Shown: positions 11,775 to 62,268 of the stretch, piece after piece
Layout: each line of letters starts with the position of its first letter
Numbering within the stretch: the first letter of the stretch is position 1
From: an uncultured virus (IMG/VR IMGVR_UViG_3300009060_000024)
Taxonomy: Duplodnaviria; Heunggongvirae; Uroviricota; Caudoviricetes
DNA length: 64,000 nucleotides
Reading direction: 5' to 3' (one strand)
Virus record (IMG/VR): IMGVR_UViG_3300009060_000024
Program-made: the position numbers and the translations under genes
The notes under the pieces: generated by a model
Seen by the model: the letters and a program-made list of their open reading frames with translations, nothing else
Told to the model about the DNA's origin: nothing
The model's database searches: none

Positions 11775-12062
11775 CTACCCATCCTGATCCTCAGGAATTA
11801 CAGATGCCCACTCGCTGATTTGGAACTCCACCTCTCTCTTTCCACGGGGTGTGAGTGTGTACTCGTTAGACCTTGCATCCTTCTCGGACTTGTCAACGAG
11901 TGACATTTTGACGAGTTCGTCGAGGTTAGGATATAGCCTCCCGTTATTAATCTTGCTCTCGTAGTAATGCTCCAGTTCATCAGCAATCTCCAGTCCGTTA
12001 GGACTGTTTAGCTTTGCGATTGTTCTGATGCAGTCTCGTTGGAATCCGGTTAAGTCGTGCAT
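11775..12062 (-). CDS. PadR-family wHTH regulator (haloarchaeal type)
   Basis: MHDLTGFQRD...GRLYPNLDELV...NEYTLTPRG. Confidence 0.9.
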   Translation of the reverse strand: MHDLTGFQRDCIRTIAKLNSPNGLEIADELEHYYESKINNGRLYPNLDELVKMSLVDKSEKDARSNEYTLTPRGKREVEFQISEWASVIPEDQDG

Positions 12063-13564: not shown

Positions 13565-13576
13565 CGTGCATCGGTT

Positions 13577-13635
13577 TGTGTCCTACGTTTGGTTGATCCA
13601 GCACCAGCTCGGGGAGCTAAGTAGGCACAGGCACC
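13577..13635 (-). ncRNA. HDV-like ribozyme E (variant)
   Basis: P1 GGUGCC/GGUGCU, P2 CCUAC/GUAGG, P3 AGC/GCU, L3 UCCCCGA, GG, CCAAAC. Confidence 0.7.
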
Positions 13636-13781
13636 GTATAATAATGGCACTAAACCCTACTGGTTTTCTGTAGGGATTAGTACCAGTCGGTATCGTATCG
13701 AATACCCACTACTTCTTCAGTCTCGTCATCGAGTTCCCAGACTGCTCTGTCAGTGGGGTGCGATCCGGTTTGGCTCATCGT

Positions 13782-14318
13782 TTACTCGTCGTCCTGTTCC
13801 TCGTCGTCGCTGTAGGCGTCCTCAGCGGCGTCGGACATCGAGCTGTCGTCGTCCTCGTCGTTGCCAGCCTGCTCTGCACGAGCCTGCTTAATGGCGTCGT
13901 TGAGGTCGGACAGCTCGAACTCGGACGCGACGACGTACTGCGCCACGTCCTGCTCGTCGAACCCGAGGAAATCCATGAGCGGAACTGCGCCCTTGGGCTC
14001 CTCGCCGTCCGGTAGCTCGGGAAGGTTGCCGATCACACCTCCGATGTAGTGCGCGAGGTAGATCTGGAAACGGGTGTACCACTCCTCGTGGTTGCCGCTC
14101 GGTGCGAGCTTCTTGAGGCTGGTACGGACAGTACCGTTTTCCTTCGTGACCTCCCACGCGAGGCTGTCGAACCACTCCCAGCCAGAGACATCCTTGTACT
14201 TGTCGTCCCCGTCGGTCGAGTAGACGTTAGCCACGAGGCTCTTGGCCTGTGAGATGTCACTGCCCTGCTGGTCGTTGTTCTGCTCTTCGCCGCCGAGTAG
14301 GTCTTTGACTCCAGACAT
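13782..14318 (-). CDS. very acidic protein with host-like high-GC codons (probably highly expressed, early)
   Basis: Almost exclusively G/C-ending codons, unlike neighbours; first gene after the structured leader. Confidence 0.85.
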   Translation of the reverse strand: MSGVKDLLGGEEQNNDQQGSDISQAKSLVANVYSTDGDDKYKDVSGWEWFDSLAWEVTKENGTVRTSLKKLAPSGNHEEWYTRFQIYLAHYIGGVIGNLPELPDGEEPKGAVPLMDFLGFDEQDVAQYVVASEFELSDLNDAIKQARAEQAGNDEDDDSSMSDAAEDAYSDDEEQDDE

Positions 14319-14324
14319 TGTGCT

Positions 14325-14855
14325 GTCTTGCCGGTTACTTATGGCAGGGGCTCTGACCATTATCCCCTAACGCCTGTTTCCGACTCAAGGCGCTGCTACA
14401 GATGGGTATAAATTCGTCTGTACCGTAACCGGATGCACATTCTTCCCAGCGCAAGCTAATTCGCAGATTTCTTTTCGCTGTATTGGCTCCTTGGATTAAG
14501 CTTCCCTAATTGCACAGCCGCTCCGCTGGAAAAATTCTCGGCGTCATAGCAACTGCTGGGGCATCCCTTTTCATAGGGCGCGCTCCTTCAAGCGTTTAGC
14601 TAATACTGCTCCCACGCAACGCTGGTCGCAGATTCACTTGAACCCTCTGGTTCGCAAGCGCTGGGGCTTACCCGATCCCATCTCTTGGTTATAGCTACCG
14701 CTATGCCGAGATCCCCCTGTCGGACTACAGGGCATTCTACTCGGCGGATGGTCATGTGTCCGCTGTCCAGACCAGTAGGTCGCGGCAGTGTCGCCACTGC
14801 TACTGGTGTATGGCTTACTTCTGTCCGCGCGCGACTGGTTTTCGCTCGCGCGCAG
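14325..14855 (-). ncRNA. large GC-rich structured RNA or leader of unknown class
   Basis: No credible ORF; more than 12 hand-identified helices, including long-range CCGGUUAC/GUAACCGG and GGAUGC-CCCAGC/GCUGGG...GCAUCC. Confidence 0.7.
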
Positions 14856-14875
14856 TTAACAGAACGAGCGCTCGA

Positions 14876-14889
14876 AACTTAAAGCTTTC
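14876..14889 (-). promoter_or_regulatory. haloarchaeal-type promoter (BRE/TATA) GAAAGCTTTAAGTT
   Basis: Purine-rich BRE plus TTTAAG, ~25 nt upstream of the first hairpin of the structured RNA. Confidence 0.65.
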
Positions 14890-15292
14890 TATTTTTCAAA
14901 GCGAAAATTCGAGGTAGAACAATACGTATTGCTTTCTTCCGCCCCCGTAAGGGCGTGTACGTCGAAAATTCAGGCGTTACAACATCGCTGTTCGATGCGC
15001 TACTGAAAACTGCAAGTAGAAGCCTTGTACCCCCTATACACCCCCACTATGGGAAATTGCGCTTGTGGATCATATGTCTGTAGCACCATTAGGATAGACG
15101 TGCAGACGGTATTTTACTCTCTCCCACTCTATTGCATACGGTAGGCAGATGTAATCTCATAAAAAATTCAAACGTCTCTATGGAGAGTGTCAAATAGCGG
15201 TTTTGGGTGCCAATATACGGGCAAAACCGCAACACGGTAGCGTAATGCCGGAAGTGTAAACGTTCTTACCTAGGGTATATAGAGCATTAGAT

Positions 15293-16147
15293 TCAATTAT
15301 CTACCACTTCCCATTCTGATGGATTTTCATCGTTTGCATACTCTAACTTTCCCTCATCTCCCCATCTATCTGTATTGTTGTATGTTGACTCACTAACGTT
15401 CATCCCGTTCTTGCCTATGTGTGACCCTCTAGATATTACAGTTTCGACTCTCTTTATACCGTTTGTCCTTATACATGATCCCATCACACCATCGTATGCA
15501 ACTGCTATTTGTCCGTCTATATCATTGAACAGGTTTAGCACCTTTCTTCTTGGACGAGATCCAACCCACCAATCGTTAGCATATGCAATATTTCTAAACC
15601 TGTCCCAATCATGCTCTAATTTCTTGAATGTGTCTTTCATCATTGCAGATGTACAGAATGAAGCTGTATCGCATATTTCAACCTTGTTTATTTGATCGTC
15701 AATATTATTTTCTTTTATTGATCCCTCAACATACCCAGAACACACGTTGTCGGGGAACTGATCAAGTAACGAGAGCATAACACGTATAATGTATTTACTT
15801 AGCACTATATCGGCCTCTGTCCTTATGACAACATCATAACCCTCATTAAACAATTGCCATTGTTTATCGAATTGAATTGCGGAACACATATTCTCATCGT
15901 TCACTCTTACATCCTTGTTTGGCAGGTTTGCATCTAACAGTATTTGTTTACATTTTTCTATTATTTCATCATCTGCTCTTCTTTTGCCACTGAACTTGTT
16001 TACCGCACCATCTTGTAACAGAACCCAATCTACCTTTTCCTTGTCTACACATTTTTCAAGAGATGATATTGTACTCTCAAGGTAGTCAGGCCTGTTGAAT
16101 GAAATGAGACTAACTGCTATGTCGAGATCGTATAGGTCCGAATACAT
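15293..16147 (-). CDS. glycosyltransferase (GT-A/GT2-like)
   Basis: ISFNRPDYLESTISSL, LLQDG, TEADIV; start uncertain. Confidence 0.8.
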   Translation of the reverse strand: MYSDLYDLDIAVSLISFNRPDYLESTISSLEKCVDKEKVDWVLLQDGAVNKFSGKRRADDEIIEKCKQILLDANLPNKDVRVNDENMCSAIQFDKQWQLFNEGYDVVIRTEADIVLSKYIIRVMLSLLDQFPDNVCSGYVEGSIKENNIDDQINKVEICDTASFCTSAMMKDTFKKLEHDWDRFRNIAYANDWWVGSRPRRKVLNLFNDIDGQIAVAYDGVMGSCIRTNGIKRVETVISRGSHIGKNGMNVSESTYNNTDRWGDEGKLEYANDENPSEWEVVDN

Positions 16148-27591: not shown

Positions 27592-28581
27592 TCATACTCT
27601 CGGTGATATTGTCGTTCCCCATTCTATTTTGTTGAGTATAACGAGCCAAAAAAGGCTCGATGTACATATCATCGCTGCAGTTGTCCAACCTATATCAGGA
27701 ATGCATATAACAACAAATCCAAACAGAGACATTCCCTCTATACTAGACATGTTTCTCAGTCTCTTCTTCCTATTATAACTCCCTGTAAACATTAGGGAGT
27801 TTGAAGCTAGATAGCGCAATAGCATCAGTAATACAAACACAGAAAACACCATCCATCCGCCCCCAAGAGAGTGTATCGCAAGAGTTCCAAATACGAACAT
27901 TGCGAAGTCAAATGCCGTGGCCATCATCTGCGCGTGTTCAGAAACGTATATTGTTGAATCGCCTGCTTGAGAGCCTAATGCTATCAATAGGTTGGATTCG
28001 TCCTGCATTATATCCTTCATCTCTCCAGACACTGCTATCTGGTACATAACCCATACAAACACATACATACACATTATCCAAAACAGTGGTTCTATTGGAC
28101 CTCCAGAGTATAGATAGGCAGAAGCGAATACAGTTGTATGTGCTATTGAGATTGGTATTGATTTGAAGTCGGTTTGTTTGCCGTACATGTTGTACAATAA
28201 CCCTGATGCTATACCAACACATATTGCCAATACAGCCATCATAGAGCTGTGAATACTCCCTTGAGTAAACACGAATATCAGCCACACGACAGTCAATAAA
28301 AACATCCCGGTGACAAACACTCTTGCACTTTGGGGAGATAAAGTTCCTTTATTTAGAGGGTGATGCTTCTTATTCTCGTCCTTTTTGTCGTATCCTTTTG
28401 CCCAGTCCAAATAGCTATTGATCCCATAACCTGCGAGATGGTATAGCAGTCCGAACACAGCCCAGTAAAAAACATTCATGGACAGCACGCTCCCAGTAGC
28501 TATTGAAGCTCCCATTATAGCTGGAACGGTCTCTAATGGAGCTGTATGCGCTCTTGTAAGTTGAAGGTATTGTTTAATCAT
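27592..28581 (-). CDS. UbiA-family prenyltransferase 1
   Basis: YLQLTRAHT, NSYLDWAKGYD...HHPL..G, GEMKDIMQD, many TM helices. Confidence 0.88.
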   Translation of the reverse strand: MIKQYLQLTRAHTAPLETVPAIMGASIATGSVLSMNVFYWAVFGLLYHLAGYGINSYLDWAKGYDKKDENKKHHPLNKGTLSPQSARVFVTGMFLLTVVWLIFVFTQGSIHSSMMAVLAICVGIASGLLYNMYGKQTDFKSIPISIAHTTVFASAYLYSGGPIEPLFWIMCMYVFVWVMYQIAVSGEMKDIMQDESNLLIALGSQAGDSTIYVSEHAQMMATAFDFAMFVFGTLAIHSLGGGWMVFSVFVLLMLLRYLASNSLMFTGSYNRKKRLRNMSSIEGMSLFGFVVICIPDIGWTTAAMICTSSLFWLVILNKIEWGTTISPRV

Positions 28582-31687: not shown

Positions 31688-32305
31688 TTATCTACTCAAC
31701 CTTTGTTCTTTCTCAAGAAAATCATCAACGTATTGTAGTCCTTCTCTTGTATTTATTGACGCATGCACTCTTTTAACAACCCATCCAAACGGCCTCCTCA
31801 GACCTCTCTTGGCATCCACGTTTCCAGCCTTTACTGCGTTTGCTATAGCCTGAGGGTTGTTATCTGCGTCTATGAGGTTATAGCTTGAGTCAACCTGAAA
31901 CACATTATGTGCATCAGAGTTTCCAAGCTCTATTGTGTTCATTGACCCTTCGTACTGAAGCTTTCCTCCGTTATACTTCTCGTTAATATTGATACCTCTC
32001 TTATTCATTTCCCATTGGGCGGTTTTTCTTATATTGACCTTTGATCTTCTTCGTGGGTGTGCAAAGAATCTAAGTCCTTGATCTGGATAGCTTACTATGT
32101 GAACCTCTGGGGATATATTCTCTGTGTGTTCTATACCATTGAGTATAGTCAGTTCATCATCCTGTACGTTTGCCATCTTGTCATGTCCCACAAACCCAAC
32201 AGCATCATATCCAAATAGTTTGTATGCTCTAAGCATTCTTTTGCGTTTGCTACGACTGTCCCAAGATACCATGGGGTCGTGGGCGTGCAAGTCTACTTTA
32301 AGCAT
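31688..32305 (-). CDS. PHP-family phosphoesterase
   Basis: DLHAH, HD, GIE, AHP, NSDAH. Confidence 0.85.
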   Translation of the reverse strand: MLKVDLHAHDPMVSWDSRSKRKRMLRAYKLFGYDAVGFVGHDKMANVQDDELTILNGIEHTENISPEVHIVSYPDQGLRFFAHPRRRSKVNIRKTAQWEMNKRGININEKYNGGKLQYEGSMNTIELGNSDAHNVFQVDSSYNLIDADNNPQAIANAVKAGNVDAKRGLRRPFGWVVKRVHASINTREGLQYVDDFLEKEQRLSR

Positions 32306-32949
32306 TAAAACCTATCTCCATTGAGTACCTGCTGTATATACCCCCTGTCCGTTTCAGGTCCAAAAGGCATGTGTCTCTGGGACTTATACACGTAAGCCTC
32401 AGGCACAAATTTAACATCTCCTATCTTCTGCATCTTTCTACGTAACTTCATTTCTTCCTCGTAGAACATCTGAACTCGGTTTTGCTGGTTTATATCCGTA
32501 TTGAACCCACCAACACGGTCAAATGCTTCAGTTTTAAATGCTGAGTTGTTTCCTTGGAGATTTGTGAATCTTTTGTACGTGTTATTTGCAAACAGTCTGA
32601 TGTGCCACATCCATTTCTGTGGATAGCACGGTCCTTGAGTTGCAACAACATTATCATCTTCGTAGAAGGGCCTTGTTATCTCATCGGCCCACCAGCTAGG
32701 GTATATATCCCCAGCGTCGGCGCATAATATTATATCAGCGTCATAATTTTCAACTCCGTATATCCTAGCATTTAATTTCCCTCTTGGAACGTTAACGACC
32801 TCATCTGCATAGCTACGTGCTATATCTCTTGTCCCATCATCAGAGTCCGAGTCAAGGACTATAGTCTCTCCTTGACCCTCAAGAGATTTTAGAGTGTCCT
32901 CTATGTAGTTTGCCTCATCTAATGTGCATATGTGTATTTGTTCTTTCAT
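32305..32949 (-). CDS. GT2 glycosyltransferase
   Basis: DSDSDDGT, ADAG, GNNSAF...VGGF. Confidence 0.88.
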   Translation of the reverse strand: MKEQIHICTLDEANYIEDTLKSLEGQGETIVLDSDSDDGTRDIARSYADEVVNVPRGKLNARIYGVENYDADIILCADAGDIYPSWWADEITRPFYEDDNVVATQGPCYPQKWMWHIRLFANNTYKRFTNLQGNNSAFKTEAFDRVGGFNTDINQQNRVQMFYEEEMKLRRKMQKIGDVKFVPEAYVYKSQRHMPFGPETDRGYIQQVLNGDRF

Positions 32950-38017: not shown

Positions 38018-38959
38018 CTACCGGATGAAATACTCTGTTAAGAAAGGAATCACAAATGAAAGCATCACTCCGGCATAGTACCACATCCAGCTCGGGTGGT
38101 TTCCAGTTCGGCTATCTATCTTGTGAGGATTAACAGCCATGTGGTATAGCATAAATAGGCAGAATGGTATTATAAGTAACATGGAAGATAAGTCTCTGGG
38201 TACAATGTTCATTGAAATACCGAAAGACATAACAGCTATCATCATGAACATCGACCCAGAAGCTATTACAGATACTCCTTTAACACCGTACATTACCACA
38301 AATGTCTTTATATTATGAGATGCGTCCACCTCTCTGTCAATTATATCTGCCGAGTTTTGGAAACCTAGGACGTAGAAGAACATGAACAGCCCCAGAGTCC
38401 ACGGCAATGCACTATACACATTTCCATACGCTGACCAAACTACTGGAAAGCTCAACAGTCCTCTGCTTACAGCTTGCCATGGTATACTTATCCTTCTCTC
38501 TTTAGCTCTTATAGGACCAAGATTATAAAACACGCCGAAGAATATTGTGACAGTCATCATCATACCAAACTGAGTGTCTACCATGTAAGCTCTACCAAGA
38601 GATATTAGTATCAGTATCCAAGCCAGCGTTCTAGCCTCGTCAACTGACACAAGCCCGGACGGTATCGGCCTGTTTCTTTTATGCTCTGTTTTGGCATCCA
38701 TATCAGCATCTTCTGCCATGTTAAGGGTTTGAGATGCTCCATGTGCAAGAGCCACTGTTACAGTTGCAAACACAACATTTGCCCAATTTGAAATTATACC
38801 ATGTATATTGTTATGATAGTAGAAAAAGAATAGAGATCCAAACAGGAACGCTACAGACATTCCTACCGTACTTGCTGGCTTTGTAAGGTCTATATACGCT
38901 CTTATTCTCTCTGGTACAATGCTTGTTCTACTGTAACTCTCCCCTAGACCCCATTTCAT
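38018..38959 (-). CDS. UbiA-family prenyltransferase 2
   Basis: YIDLTKP, NMAEDADMD...RNRPIPSG, DIIDREVD. Confidence 0.92.
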   Translation of the reverse strand: MKWGLGESYSRTSIVPERIRAYIDLTKPASTVGMSVAFLFGSLFFFYYHNNIHGIISNWANVVFATVTVALAHGASQTLNMAEDADMDAKTEHKRNRPIPSGLVSVDEARTLAWILILISLGRAYMVDTQFGMMMTVTIFFGVFYNLGPIRAKERRISIPWQAVSRGLLSFPVVWSAYGNVYSALPWTLGLFMFFYVLGFQNSADIIDREVDASHNIKTFVVMYGVKGVSVIASGSMFMMIAVMSFGISMNIVPRDLSSMLLIIPFCLFMLYHMAVNPHKIDSRTGNHPSWMWYYAGVMLSFVIPFLTEYFIR

Positions 38960-40283: not shown

Positions 40284-40889
40284 TTAATCTTTGTTACCGT
40301 AATCTGCTTGTTTCCAGTTCTGTGGGATGCTTCCCTTCTGAACGTTACTATTTGGGTTTTGCTCTATCTTACTTCTCACCTGTTGGAATAGTTGGTGGTG
40401 ATGTGTTTCGTCTTTGATTATCTCATTGATGACAGGCTCAAATCCTGGGTATCCCACTTGTTTTGCGTAAGATGCTATCTCGGGGTATGTGTCCATGGCA
40501 TCCTGCTCTGCTTCTTCAAGAGCGGACGCGGCTTGTCTTGTGTCGAGGTATTGCCCTGTCGGGTTGAGTTCATCAAACACCATGTGCATCTGTGTAGACG
40601 TTTGTGGTGCCCCGCCAGCTCTAGTAATCATAACCGAAAACTTGTGGAGGTGGTCGAACTCGTCGTTAGCGGCATACCTCATGTGTTCACCAAGAGTCTG
40701 AGCGTATGGACCACTCAGATTATACGACTCGGACACATAATTAATTATCGCTTCTGCTTCAGACGTGTGTGCATCTTGAAGCATGTTTATGAGTCTCTGG
40801 TTTGGTGAACCAGTATCTCTTGGGAATGATTTATTGTTTCCTACGAACGGTCCAAACGGCCTCTTATTTGCGAATGGCCTTCTTGGCAT
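40284..40889 (-). CDS. ferritin-like (bacterioferritin/DPS-like) di-iron protein with basic N-terminal extension
   Basis: E..A...Y, DEFDH, AEQDA..Y, DETHH. Confidence 0.85.
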   Translation of the reverse strand: MPRRPFANKRPFGPFVGNNKSFPRDTGSPNQRLINMLQDAHTSEAEAIINYVSESYNLSGPYAQTLGEHMRYAANDEFDHLHKFSVMITRAGGAPQTSTQMHMVFDELNPTGQYLDTRQAASALEEAEQDAMDTYPEIASYAKQVGYPGFEPVINEIIKDETHHHQLFQQVRSKIEQNPNSNVQKGSIPQNWKQADYGNKD

Positions 40890-57298: not shown

Positions 57299-58570
57299 AT
57301 GCGCATTCTCTGGCACAGTGCCGCACCTTGGGTCAACACTGGATATGGACATTGCACAAGAGAGATCGTCACGAGACTTCAGAAAAGAGGACACGATATT
57401 GCTGTCAAGCCACTTGGAGCTGTTACTAAAGGACCGTTCTGGTGGCATGGTGAGGAATCACCAGTAGAATTAGATGAGCCTATAAAGATTTATGATGCGG
57501 GTCAGGCATTTGGTTTGGATACCACCACTGACAACTTCTCAGATTTTAACGCTGATCTTTACTTCACTCATTTCGATACATGGATTGGGCCAGCTCGTAA
57601 TACAATCCCCAACATGGGAATACCATATGCGAGCTATGTGATCGTTGATCACTACCCAGTTCCAAATGCTGTTGTGGAGCAAGTCCAAAACGCACAAAGA
57701 GTAGTCGCAATGTCTCAATATGGCAAGGCGGCTCTGAGAGAGAAAGGAACACCATCGAGAACTATAACTCACGGCATAGACCCCGATGTTCAAAAGCCAT
57801 TAACGGGCGATGACAAACCATCTGTCATACACACTCAAGACGAATCAGGTGAGATTAAGGACGTAGACCTCGATGAAACATTCGTTGTTGGTATGGTAGC
57901 AGCTAACCATGGAGACAGGAAACATATACCTGGTCACATGGAGGCATTTAAAATGGTGCTGAGAGAGATTGATGAAGATGCCATAATGTACATCCATACA
58001 GATGCCAACCCGAACGAAGGGCATAACCTAAATGAGGTGAGGAAAGAGATAGGTCTTCCTCAAGAGAATGTAGTGTGGCCCAGTAATGAAATGTACCATG
58101 GAATATCTGACTCAATGCTTAACAAATGGTACAATTCGTTCGACGTGTTCGTAAATTGTTCGTATGGAGAATCGTGGGGCATGTGCGTCACAGAAGCCAT
58201 GGCTGCTGGACTGCCAGTGATTGTATCTAACTTCAGTTCAATGCCAGAGCAGATAACTAACGACGACAATAATCTAGAAGATATTACAATCACAGGACCT
58301 AGAACATATGGGGGCATAAAAGAGGCTGATCACGGCATAGCTGTCGATCCTGTCGTCGGAGTGTTCAGAGCAAGAGTTTCTGCAAAGCAGTTCATAGTAC
58401 ATCCCAAGGACATAAAGGATGCCATAATGTACTATTACAACAACCCAGACATTGCACATGAGCATGGCGAAAAGGCTAGGGAATACGCTGTCAACAATTA
58501 CACATGGGAGGATCATGTAGTGCCAAAATTCGATAAGATGTTCAGTGATATGGAGGCTGAATTACAATGA
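57299..58570 (+). CDS. GT4 (GT-B) glycosyltransferase
   Basis: TGYG, HGID, ESWGMCVTEAMAAGLPVI. Confidence 0.92.
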   Translation: MRILWHSAAPWVNTGYGHCTREIVTRLQKRGHDIAVKPLGAVTKGPFWWHGEESPVELDEPIKIYDAGQAFGLDTTTDNFSDFNADLYFTHFDTWIGPARNTIPNMGIPYASYVIVDHYPVPNAVVEQVQNAQRVVAMSQYGKAALREKGTPSRTITHGIDPDVQKPLTGDDKPSVIHTQDESGEIKDVDLDETFVVGMVAANHGDRKHIPGHMEAFKMVLREIDEDAIMYIHTDANPNEGHNLNEVRKEIGLPQENVVWPSNEMYHGISDSMLNKWYNSFDVFVNCSYGESWGMCVTEAMAAGLPVIVSNFSSMPEQITNDDNNLEDITITGPRTYGGIKEADHGIAVDPVVGVFRARVSAKQFIVHPKDIKDAIMYYYNNPDIAHEHGEKAREYAVNNYTWEDHVVPKFDKMFSDMEAELQ

Positions 58571-62155: not shown

Positions 62156-62268
62156 TGGGAGTGGGAGGGATCGAACCCCCGTCACAGATGTCATGATTGA
62201 GTTAGCGACATATGGCAATTTTGTTTGATGCTCACCATTACTGTGACATTCCATTAAATTACACTCCC
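62156..62268 (-). ncRNA. atypical tRNA-like RNA (~113 nt)
   Basis: Acceptor GGGAGTG/CACTCCC-A and T arm GGGGG-TTCGATC-CCTCC, but the anticodon arm is replaced by a branched insert. Confidence 0.7.

Follow-up and report, generated by a model that had tools for sequence, protein, structure and literature searches.

Introduction

OLE RNA lies within an operon, immediately before a small conserved protein gene whose function was initially not known and with which it is co-inherited. The internal ribosome entry sites (IRESs) of hepatitis C virus (HCV) and the pestiviruses are multi-domain 5' leaders of several hundred nucleotides (nt) that end at the start codon. We know of no IRES in archaea and, to the extent of a light search, of no large ornate RNA or long structured leader described for archaea and their mobile elements beyond ribosomal RNA (rRNA), RNase P and signal recognition particle (SRP) RNA. 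ROOL and GOLLD are presented as large ornate RNAs, found in bacteria and their phages, that assemble into cages made solely of RNA (bioRxiv 10.1101/2024.12.08.627333), and initiation independent of a Shine-Dalgarno (SD) sequence on leadered haloarchaeal mRNAs is described as still unexplained (PMC3986360, PMC4983044). Here, a ~530-nt non-coding stretch is analyzed that lies directly upstream of the gene for a 178-amino-acid (aa) protein in an uncultured element, recorded as a virus of the Caudoviricetes (IMG/VR record IMGVR_UViG_3300009060_000024). The 64,000 nt of this record that were analyzed are called the window.

The stretch represents a genuine structured non-coding element that is under strong constraint and belongs to a new family, and it probably functions as a folded RNA. 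Its layout, an RNA followed directly by a small conserved protein gene, is the same as that of OLE RNA. As to its role, the stretch is tentatively read as a cis-acting structured 5' leader of the downstream gene, and this reading is weighed below against its alternatives.

Results

Conservation of the non-coding stretch

The feature extends from ~14857 to 14325 on the minus strand. It was first described from the letters of the DNA alone (hereafter the sequence-only reading), and all sequence elements quoted in that description were present at their places on the minus strand. The claim that the region holds no credible open reading frame (ORF) was borne out: the longest ORF overlapping 14319-14862 in any frame encodes 65 aa, and none is conserved in metagenome locus L001, the sole relative found. 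L001 was reached via the 178-aa protein, by a search of metagenome contigs; the metagenome collection was searched for copies of the RNA by way of the neighbouring protein only.

The window and L001 are syntenic mosaics with variable flanks. Over the RNA stretch the two loci are 87% identical (gap columns excluded), compared with 62% for the 178-aa protein and 48, 40 and 36% for the fourfold-degenerate sites of three flanking genes. Identity per 60-nt block was 37-70% upstream of 14943, 80-95% for 14942-14403 and 37-83% in the 178-aa gene. By this comparison, no other part of the locus is kept as strictly as the non-coding stretch. Upstream of the block the two loci carry different genes, and therefore the conserved unit starts with the palindrome and the promoter described below.

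Run X1, a set of DNA contigs and the one run listed for the stretch, contained over 14200-15000 the window variant at a depth of ~10-16, together with an L001-like variant at a depth of ~5-6. The assembly graph of this run breaks exactly at invariant segments common to both variants. Since both variants occur within run X1, the two elements coexist in one community.

Covariation and folding

RNAalifold folded the two aligned sequences into 141 pairs in 24 helices, none of them broken. Both members were changed in 10 pairs, which are spread over 7 of the 24 helices, and one member was changed in 5 pairs. In 200 shuffles of the columns within conservation classes, which do not keep dinucleotides, 2.2 ± 1.4 both-sided changes were obtained (maximum 7) and none of the shuffles reached 10. 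The alignment energy was -170 as observed and -127 ± 6.6 in the column shuffles, and only 0-1 both-sided changes were left when the partner was slid by 1-3 columns. RNAalifold is able to pick favourable columns, but the yield of such picking is small, judging by three coding alignments run through the same pipeline as controls: these gave 18 both-sided changes versus 12.5 ± 2.9 in shuffles (3 of 60 shuffles as high), 6 versus 7.6, and 12 versus 10.9.

The positions of the substitutions agree with this structure. Among the 67 substituted columns, 25 are paired, all of them pair-preserving, and 42 belong to the 264 unpaired columns; gap columns are unpaired in 14 of 14 cases. Substitutions were distributed over the codon phases as 18/25/17 (p = 0.39), without codon periodicity, and the comparison with L001 revealed neither a conserved reading frame nor a third-position bias as signs of a coding gene or pseudogene. 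In short ORFs common to both sequences the changes are mostly non-synonymous. Small conserved peptides encoded in the stretch were considered and rejected: in a 22-aa ORF, 3 of the 22 residues differ, and of the changes 3 are non-synonymous and 2 synonymous.

Single-sequence folding gave a more modest signal. The minus strand of the feature folded with a z-score of -2.65, none of 100 shuffles being as good, and the L001 copy with a z-score of -2.79 (1/100 shuffles folding as well). For the plus strand of the feature the z-score was -2.23 (3/100), and for the non-conserved spacer upstream it was +1.21 (89/100). The expectation that the stretch would fold better than its shuffled controls was thus confirmed for the stretch itself, but it does not set the stretch apart from its neighbour, because the adjacent protein-coding ORF, at the same length, reached -2.64 (1/100); the folding z-score alone would not single out this region. 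Structure beyond chance is indicated by covariation and, weakly, by thermodynamics.

Taken together, the comparison with L001 supports the proposal of a conserved, non-coding, highly structured RNA-type element of ~530 nt running up to an AUG. The traits of a large ornate non-coding RNA (ncRNA), a length above ~400 nt, many covarying helices and the lack of coding capacity, are present here at ~530 nt and in two sequences.

Architecture of the RNA

The RNA is described here from its 5' end on the minus strand. Helix 1, at 14825-14855, is a 5'-terminal G+C-rich hairpin of 11 pairs with a loop of 8-11 nt in the RNAalifold structure. It is invariant between the two sequences, so that covariation neither supports nor contradicts it.

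Domain I (14666-14818; helices 2-9) is multi-branched, as seen from RNAalifold and pair counts. One of its arms consists of ACCAGUAG/CUACUGGU and GCAGUG/CACUGC with a GCGA tetraloop, the other of GCCGAG/CUCGGC and CCCUG/CAGGG. Two both-sided compensatory changes (14807/14771 and 14728/14719) and a single one-sided change fall in this domain: ACCAGUAG/CUACUGGU is kept with a change from A-U to G-C, and CCCUG/CAGGG with a change from G-C to A-U.

Domain II, the central domain (14445-14665; helices 11-19), was delimited in the same way. Its closing helix, the long-range CCCAGCGC..GC / GC..GCGCUGGG, pairs 14665-14654 with 14456-14445 and contains two compensatory pairs (14664/14446 and 14660/14450). 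Three more compensatory pairs are found in inner helices (14628/14609, 14625/14612 and 14542/14525). A U5 tract at 14530-14534, read from the sequence and identical in L001, may represent a partial or conditional archaeal termination signal. Since covarying helices span this tract, the functional RNA must read through it; and since they also reach 14348, the functional RNA covers essentially the whole stretch.

In domain III (14325-14438), CCGGUUAC/GUAACCGG closes a junction of three hairpins, 14432-14425 pairing with 14338-14331. Three compensatory pairs are located in two of its inner hairpins (14422/14396, 14421/14398 and 14366/14348), in line with the junction that had been drawn within the last helix from one sequence. 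In L001 the middle hairpin keeps its stem and is shorter by 7 nt at the tip. Covariance model R1, built for domain III, matched these two sites alone when it was run on the window and L001. The closing helix ends 12 nt short of the AUG at 14318; this spacer varies (12 nt versus 8 nt in L001) while the closing helix is invariant.

Most of the helices named in the sequence-only reading are therefore part of the common structure, among them the invariant GCGCGCGA/UCGCGCGC, GCAGUG/CACUGC, GCCGAG/CUCGGC and CCGGUUAC/GUAACCGG, but two of them are not supported. GAACC/GGUUC reads GAAAC/GGUUU in L001, which results in an A.G mismatch. The proposed long-range pairing of CCCAGC (14555) with GCUGGG is contradicted by the change of GCUGGG to ACUGAG in L001: the partner that changes with it is CCCAGCGC at 14665-14658 (which becomes CUCAGUGC), and the true partner of GCUGGG is the CCCAGC at 14664-14659.

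Promoter-like sites and connection to the downstream ORF

A promoter directly upstream of the RNA had been claimed, and a site resembling a BRE (the element recognized by transcription factor B) plus TATA box is indeed present there. This site, P1, reads GAAAGCTTTAAG (AGAAAG-C-TTTAAG) at 14889-14878 on the minus strand, is the sole exact copy in the window, and differs in no letter in L001. It fits the haloarchaeal promoter motifs CGAAA (BRE) and TTWT (TATA) as they are given in PMC4983044. From the spacing, a transcription start at ~14857-14853 is predicted. A perfect 12-bp palindrome, CAATACGTATTG, is situated at 14920-14931, 31 bp upstream of P1; it also occurs as a single exact copy in the window and has the same letters in L001, and the conserved block begins close by, at ~14945. 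This palindrome is a candidate operator for a dimeric regulator. P1 itself contains an 8-bp palindrome, AAAGCTTT, that is identical in L001. A gene for a PadR-type regulator at 11775-12062 belongs to the same gene block, and its product is a candidate binder of the palindromes in P1 and at 14920-14931.

The RNA runs into the ORF of the 178-aa protein (MSGVKDLL...; 13782-14318, minus strand), which starts with the AUG at 14318. A start at the in-frame ATG at 14360 was considered and rejected, as in L001 this ATG stands out of frame, and in the three closest homologues the protein begins with MSGV at the downstream AUG. No U-run of 4 or more is found between 14438 and the AUG at 14318, and without such a run after domain III the stretch is read as a 5' leader: it takes the position between a promoter-like site and a start codon, and no terminator stands in between. 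The neighbouring genes from 16198 down to ~5400 are all on the minus strand. The G+C content is 54.6% in the stretch and 44.4% in the window; the 178-aa gene is richer still with 60.9%, and therefore G+C content alone does not mark the RNA.

A second BRE/TATA-like site, P2 (CGAATTTATA, 14407-14416, minus strand), lies within domain III, in the first hairpin's loop. The loop is identical to L001 in 13 of 14 positions, and the site fits the same CGAAA and TTWT motifs (PMC4983044). P2 is a possible internal promoter for the 178-aa ORF.

In the model tentatively preferred here, a ~530-nt multi-domain RNA would be transcribed on the minus strand from P1 (14889-14878) and would consist of the 5' hairpin, the branched domain I, the central domain II and the three-hairpin domain III, followed by 12 nt and the AUG. 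It would be the 5' leader of an mRNA that carries the gene of the acidic 178-aa protein and the small genes following it, and would act in cis on expression of the 178-aa gene, via translation or mRNA stability. The minus strand is chosen because the conserved promoter points that way and the genes around it are on this strand. From the DNA itself we infer that the stretch is transcribed, on which strand and from which start, that the ORF is co-transcribed, and that the switch described in the following section exists.

A putative switch involving the start region

The leader segment CCGCCGAGUAG (14737-14747, minus strand) forms one strand of the local helix GCCGAG/CUCGGC in domain I. An alternative partner, CUACUCGGCGG, is provided by codons 7-10 (L L G G) of the 178-aa ORF at 14290-14300 on the same strand. 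The segments 14747-14737 and 14300-14290 are 100% complementary over 11 nt, with a duplex energy of -20.8 kcal/mol, and RNAalifold prefers the distal pairing once the start of the ORF is included. A complementarity of at least 11 nt was found in 8 of 2000 dinucleotide shuffles of the leader. In L001, 10 of the 11 positions of the distal arm are kept, and the terminal G is changed to A. The first 30 nt of the ORF are identical to L001 in 29 positions, compared with 55% identity at third positions of the whole gene.

This arrangement suggests two mutually exclusive conformations. In one state, CCGCCGAGUAG would pair with the nearby CUCGGC and leave the start region free; in the other it would pair with codons 7-10, so that the start codon would be enclosed in a closed domain.

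Searches for related RNAs

Rfam 15 at gathering thresholds gave 10 tRNA matches in the whole window and nothing else. When 14100-15300 was searched at E <= 10, two chance hits were obtained, GABA3 with 16.9 bits (gathering threshold 57) and IRES_Pesti with 9 bits and E = 8.7 (gathering threshold 180). ROOL, GOLLD, OLE, HEARO, RNase P, SRP, group I and II introns and ribozymes gave no match in Rfam 15. The stretch matched none of the 4227 Rfam 15 families, in keeping with the earlier statement that signatures of RNase P, SRP RNA and group I/II introns are lacking, and the RNA is not a member of a family already known to that database.

Further copies were sought in several collections. BLAST found none in 401 Halobacteria genomes, and covariance model R2 gave one hit in 151 genomes that was taken as chance (18 bits, E = 0.054). 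No copy was found by blastn in phages or plasmids, or in four IMG/VR DNA-pattern scans. On the window and L001, models R1 and R2 yielded self matches only, and therefore the RNA has no paralogue there. IMG/VR gave no relatives via the 178-aa protein, alignments A1 and A6 or a 166-aa neighbour; with alignment A1, genome contigs gave none and metagenome contigs gave L001 only. The RNA thus stands at two sequences in all and, in these collections, does not recur across many genomes; the term "class" used in the sequence-only reading is not supported.

Alternative explanations

The interpretation as a cis-acting 5' leader fits the anatomy slightly better than that as a stand-alone analogue of ROOL or GOLLD, but a number of points weigh against it. 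The independent sequences are two only, the window and L001, and a second variant, seen in part in run X1, is L001-like without contributing a further one. The coding gene next to the stretch folds as well relative to its shuffles, and covariation is neutral with respect to the strand, since 9 of the 10 compensatory pairs remain Watson-Crick whichever strand is read, and 9 are obtained from the reverse complement. The switch lacks covariation support because its arms are invariant save for the terminal G to A, and its complementarity was noticed post hoc. With 530 nt and ~24 helices, the RNA is far larger than known cis-regulators; a conserved U5 tract stands in its middle; and P2 could give the ORF its own short-leader mRNA, in which case the big RNA would be a separate product. 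In one haloarchaeon studied genome-wide, 72% of the transcripts are reported as leaderless, and in Haloferax structured leaders were judged genome-wide not to be typical (PMC4983044). By analogy with OLE, ROOL and GOLLD, the stretch could instead encode a stand-alone, trans-acting large ncRNA, processed from the operon transcript or made as a separate product of P1, a strong rival reading that we regard as somewhat less probable than the leader. Such an RNA would be part of an RNA-protein particle, perhaps with the 178-aa protein (compare OLE and OapA), or of an RNA-only assembly like ROOL/GOLLD, and the ORF would then be expressed from the site at 14416-14407. Its ~24 helices and three closed domains match the OLE, ROOL and GOLLD classes and not known cis-regulators, and the BRE/TATA-like site within the RNA is kept in the loop of a hairpin. 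The unpaired nucleotides are strongly kept (42 substitutions in 264 columns) while neutral sites are near saturation, which suggests tertiary or protein contacts. RNA and ORF are linked in both loci, and the element has tRNA clusters, a trait shared by many hosts of ROOL and GOLLD. However, neither a terminator-like U-run after domain III nor a known processing signal is present, constraint and complementarity run into the start of the ORF, and the 178-aa protein is very acidic with no RNA-binding fold seen.

Two further explanations are both considered very improbable. One is an antisense RNA from the plus strand, which would start near the 5' end of the 178-aa gene and end at the T5 run at 14893-14897. 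The strand neutrality of the covariation would allow this, the plus strand folds nearly as well (alignment fold -167.95 versus -170, besides the z-score of -2.23), and a G+C hairpin followed by TTTCTATTTTTC is present; yet no suitably placed BRE/TATA-like site was seen by eye on that strand, the conserved block opens with a minus-oriented promoter and the palindrome, and the neighbours from 16198 to ~5400 are all on the minus strand. The other explanation assumes no RNA function at all: the stretch would be a DNA module recently exchanged by mosaic recombination, or a site acting at the DNA level, such as an origin, a packaging site or a regulatory site. Both elements are mosaic with variable flanks, exchange would be possible because both variants occur in one run, and the conserved block holds a palindrome and two promoter-like sites. 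A recent transfer, however, would not put 20 of 67 substitutions into 10 compensating pairs and every indel into a loop. The stretch is G+C-rich, unlike an A+T-rich unwinding element, and it contains no iterons or direct-repeat arrays; an origin of the iteron type was considered and rejected for this lack of repeat arrays.

The 178-aa protein and the genomic context

The 178-aa protein is acidic and mainly helical. Among 58 scored candidates it had 5 relatives besides itself, and the homologues all start near the AUG at 14318. The family is small, with 29 cluster representatives at E <= 1e-3 among 1.84 billion proteins. Neither Pfam nor PHROGs contained a matching family, and the ESM Atlas scores were all below 0.9. 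An AlphaFold2 model with a pLDDT of 80.4 was helical; Foldseek matched it to nothing in PDB or BFVD at E <= 0.001, and the best VIA-align Z was 4.0 over 50 residues. In alignment A6, 13 of 24 aligned family members end with an acidic tail, ...EADD(D), often after EP or PA, and this tail is lacking in the window protein and its two closest relatives. A conserved C-terminal tail is usually a docking motif.

Two other segments of the locus resemble L001 at the DNA level. The gap between the 178-aa gene and a 177-aa gene (13565-13781, minus strand) is 83-88% identical to L001 and holds a 33-aa ORF (13778-13677, MSQTGSHPTDRAVWELDDETEEVVGIRYDTDWY), followed by a hairpin CCCTAC..GTAGGG and the promoter-like ATTATTATA; this gap could represent a small protein gene with a terminator and a promoter, or a second conserved RNA element. 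The segment 11211-11529 is 82% identical in DNA to 6934-7252 of L001 over 319 nt. Because 77% identity over 112 codons is reached in one tblastx frame, this segment probably corresponds to a conserved small gene under the 100-aa ORF cut-off.

The window is part of a contig of ~80 kb with 44% G+C, and it carries 9-10 tRNA genes. A 113-nt Rfam tRNA match at 62156-62268 (minus strand) scored 30.4 bits, just over the gathering threshold, and was not called by ARAGORN; it lies in the tRNA cluster at 60.8-62.3 kb and may represent an archaeal tRNA with an intron. The genes of the element encode an integrase, a ParA-type ATPase, an AAA+/clamp-loader-like ATPase, PadR regulators and a subtilase. In addition, two UbiA prenyltransferases, a ferritin/rubrerythrin-like protein and several glycosyltransferases are carried as cargo (27592-28581, 38018-38959, 40284-40889, 32305-32949 and 57299-58570). 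Where a mobile element has an integrase and tRNA clusters, such lipid and cell-surface cargo is unusual.

No virion or packaging family (capsid, portal, terminase or tail) was found among 72 ORFs compared with Pfam or among 70 compared with PHROGs. For this reason the words "viral" and "early transcript", both used in the sequence-only reading, are unproven; moreover, genes with the same orientation stand upstream of the RNA. A haloarchaeal host is likely, given the acidic proteins and an epimerase gene with 59-65% identity to Halobacteriales genes.

Discussion

The non-coding 530 nt are the best kept part of the locus, which would mean that the element cannot afford to lose the RNA, whatever its job. 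With one promoter, one RNA and one small gene, the locus is also a compact and testable object.

OLE RNA and its partner gene oapA offer a close parallel: OLE is described as an RNA of ~0.5-0.6 kb with many conserved helices that occurs in extremophilic Firmicutes (PMC3413148), and the present RNA, too, belongs to an extremophile. In contrast to OLE, the RNA described here has no Rfam match, belongs to an archaeal mobile element and is present in two copies, and its partner is a soluble acidic protein whereas that of OLE is a membrane protein. With ROOL and GOLLD it shares the large size, the many helices, the lack of coding capacity and the location on a mobile element with tRNA genes (bioRxiv 10.1101/2024.12.08.627333; PMC5737381). 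Unlike them, it gave no covariance-model match even at E <= 10, runs into an ORF without a terminator, and is in part complementary to the start of that ORF. If the RNA is a stand-alone product, the world of OLE, ROOL and GOLLD extends to archaea.

The IRESs of the HCV and pestivirus type resemble the stretch as multi-domain leaders whose last domain ends at the start codon, and the 12-nt spacer contains no SD-like sequence. By this analogy, the RNA could be an IRES-like leader whose platform ends ~10 nt before an AUG without SD sequence and places the small ribosomal subunit on the start codon. We consider this improbable, and the match to the pestivirus model (9 bits, E = 8.7) is due to chance. 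If it were true, the stretch would be the first defined cis-element for SD-independent initiation on leadered haloarchaeal mRNAs.

Bacterial riboswitches, T-boxes and the leaders of ribosomal protein genes are likewise situated between promoter and start codon and, as is proposed for the present RNA, have one strand with two exclusive partners, one of them in the initiation region. The RNA described here is 2-5 times larger, matches no known aptamer or family and has no ligand candidate, and structured leaders are described as rare in haloarchaea (PMC4983044). If it is a leader, it provides a natural handle on how haloarchaea start translation on leadered mRNAs without SD sequence. In conclusion, the RNA is of a kind that is known from bacteria and phages, both as large ornate RNAs and as structured leaders, and that is, as far as could be found, apparently new for archaea.

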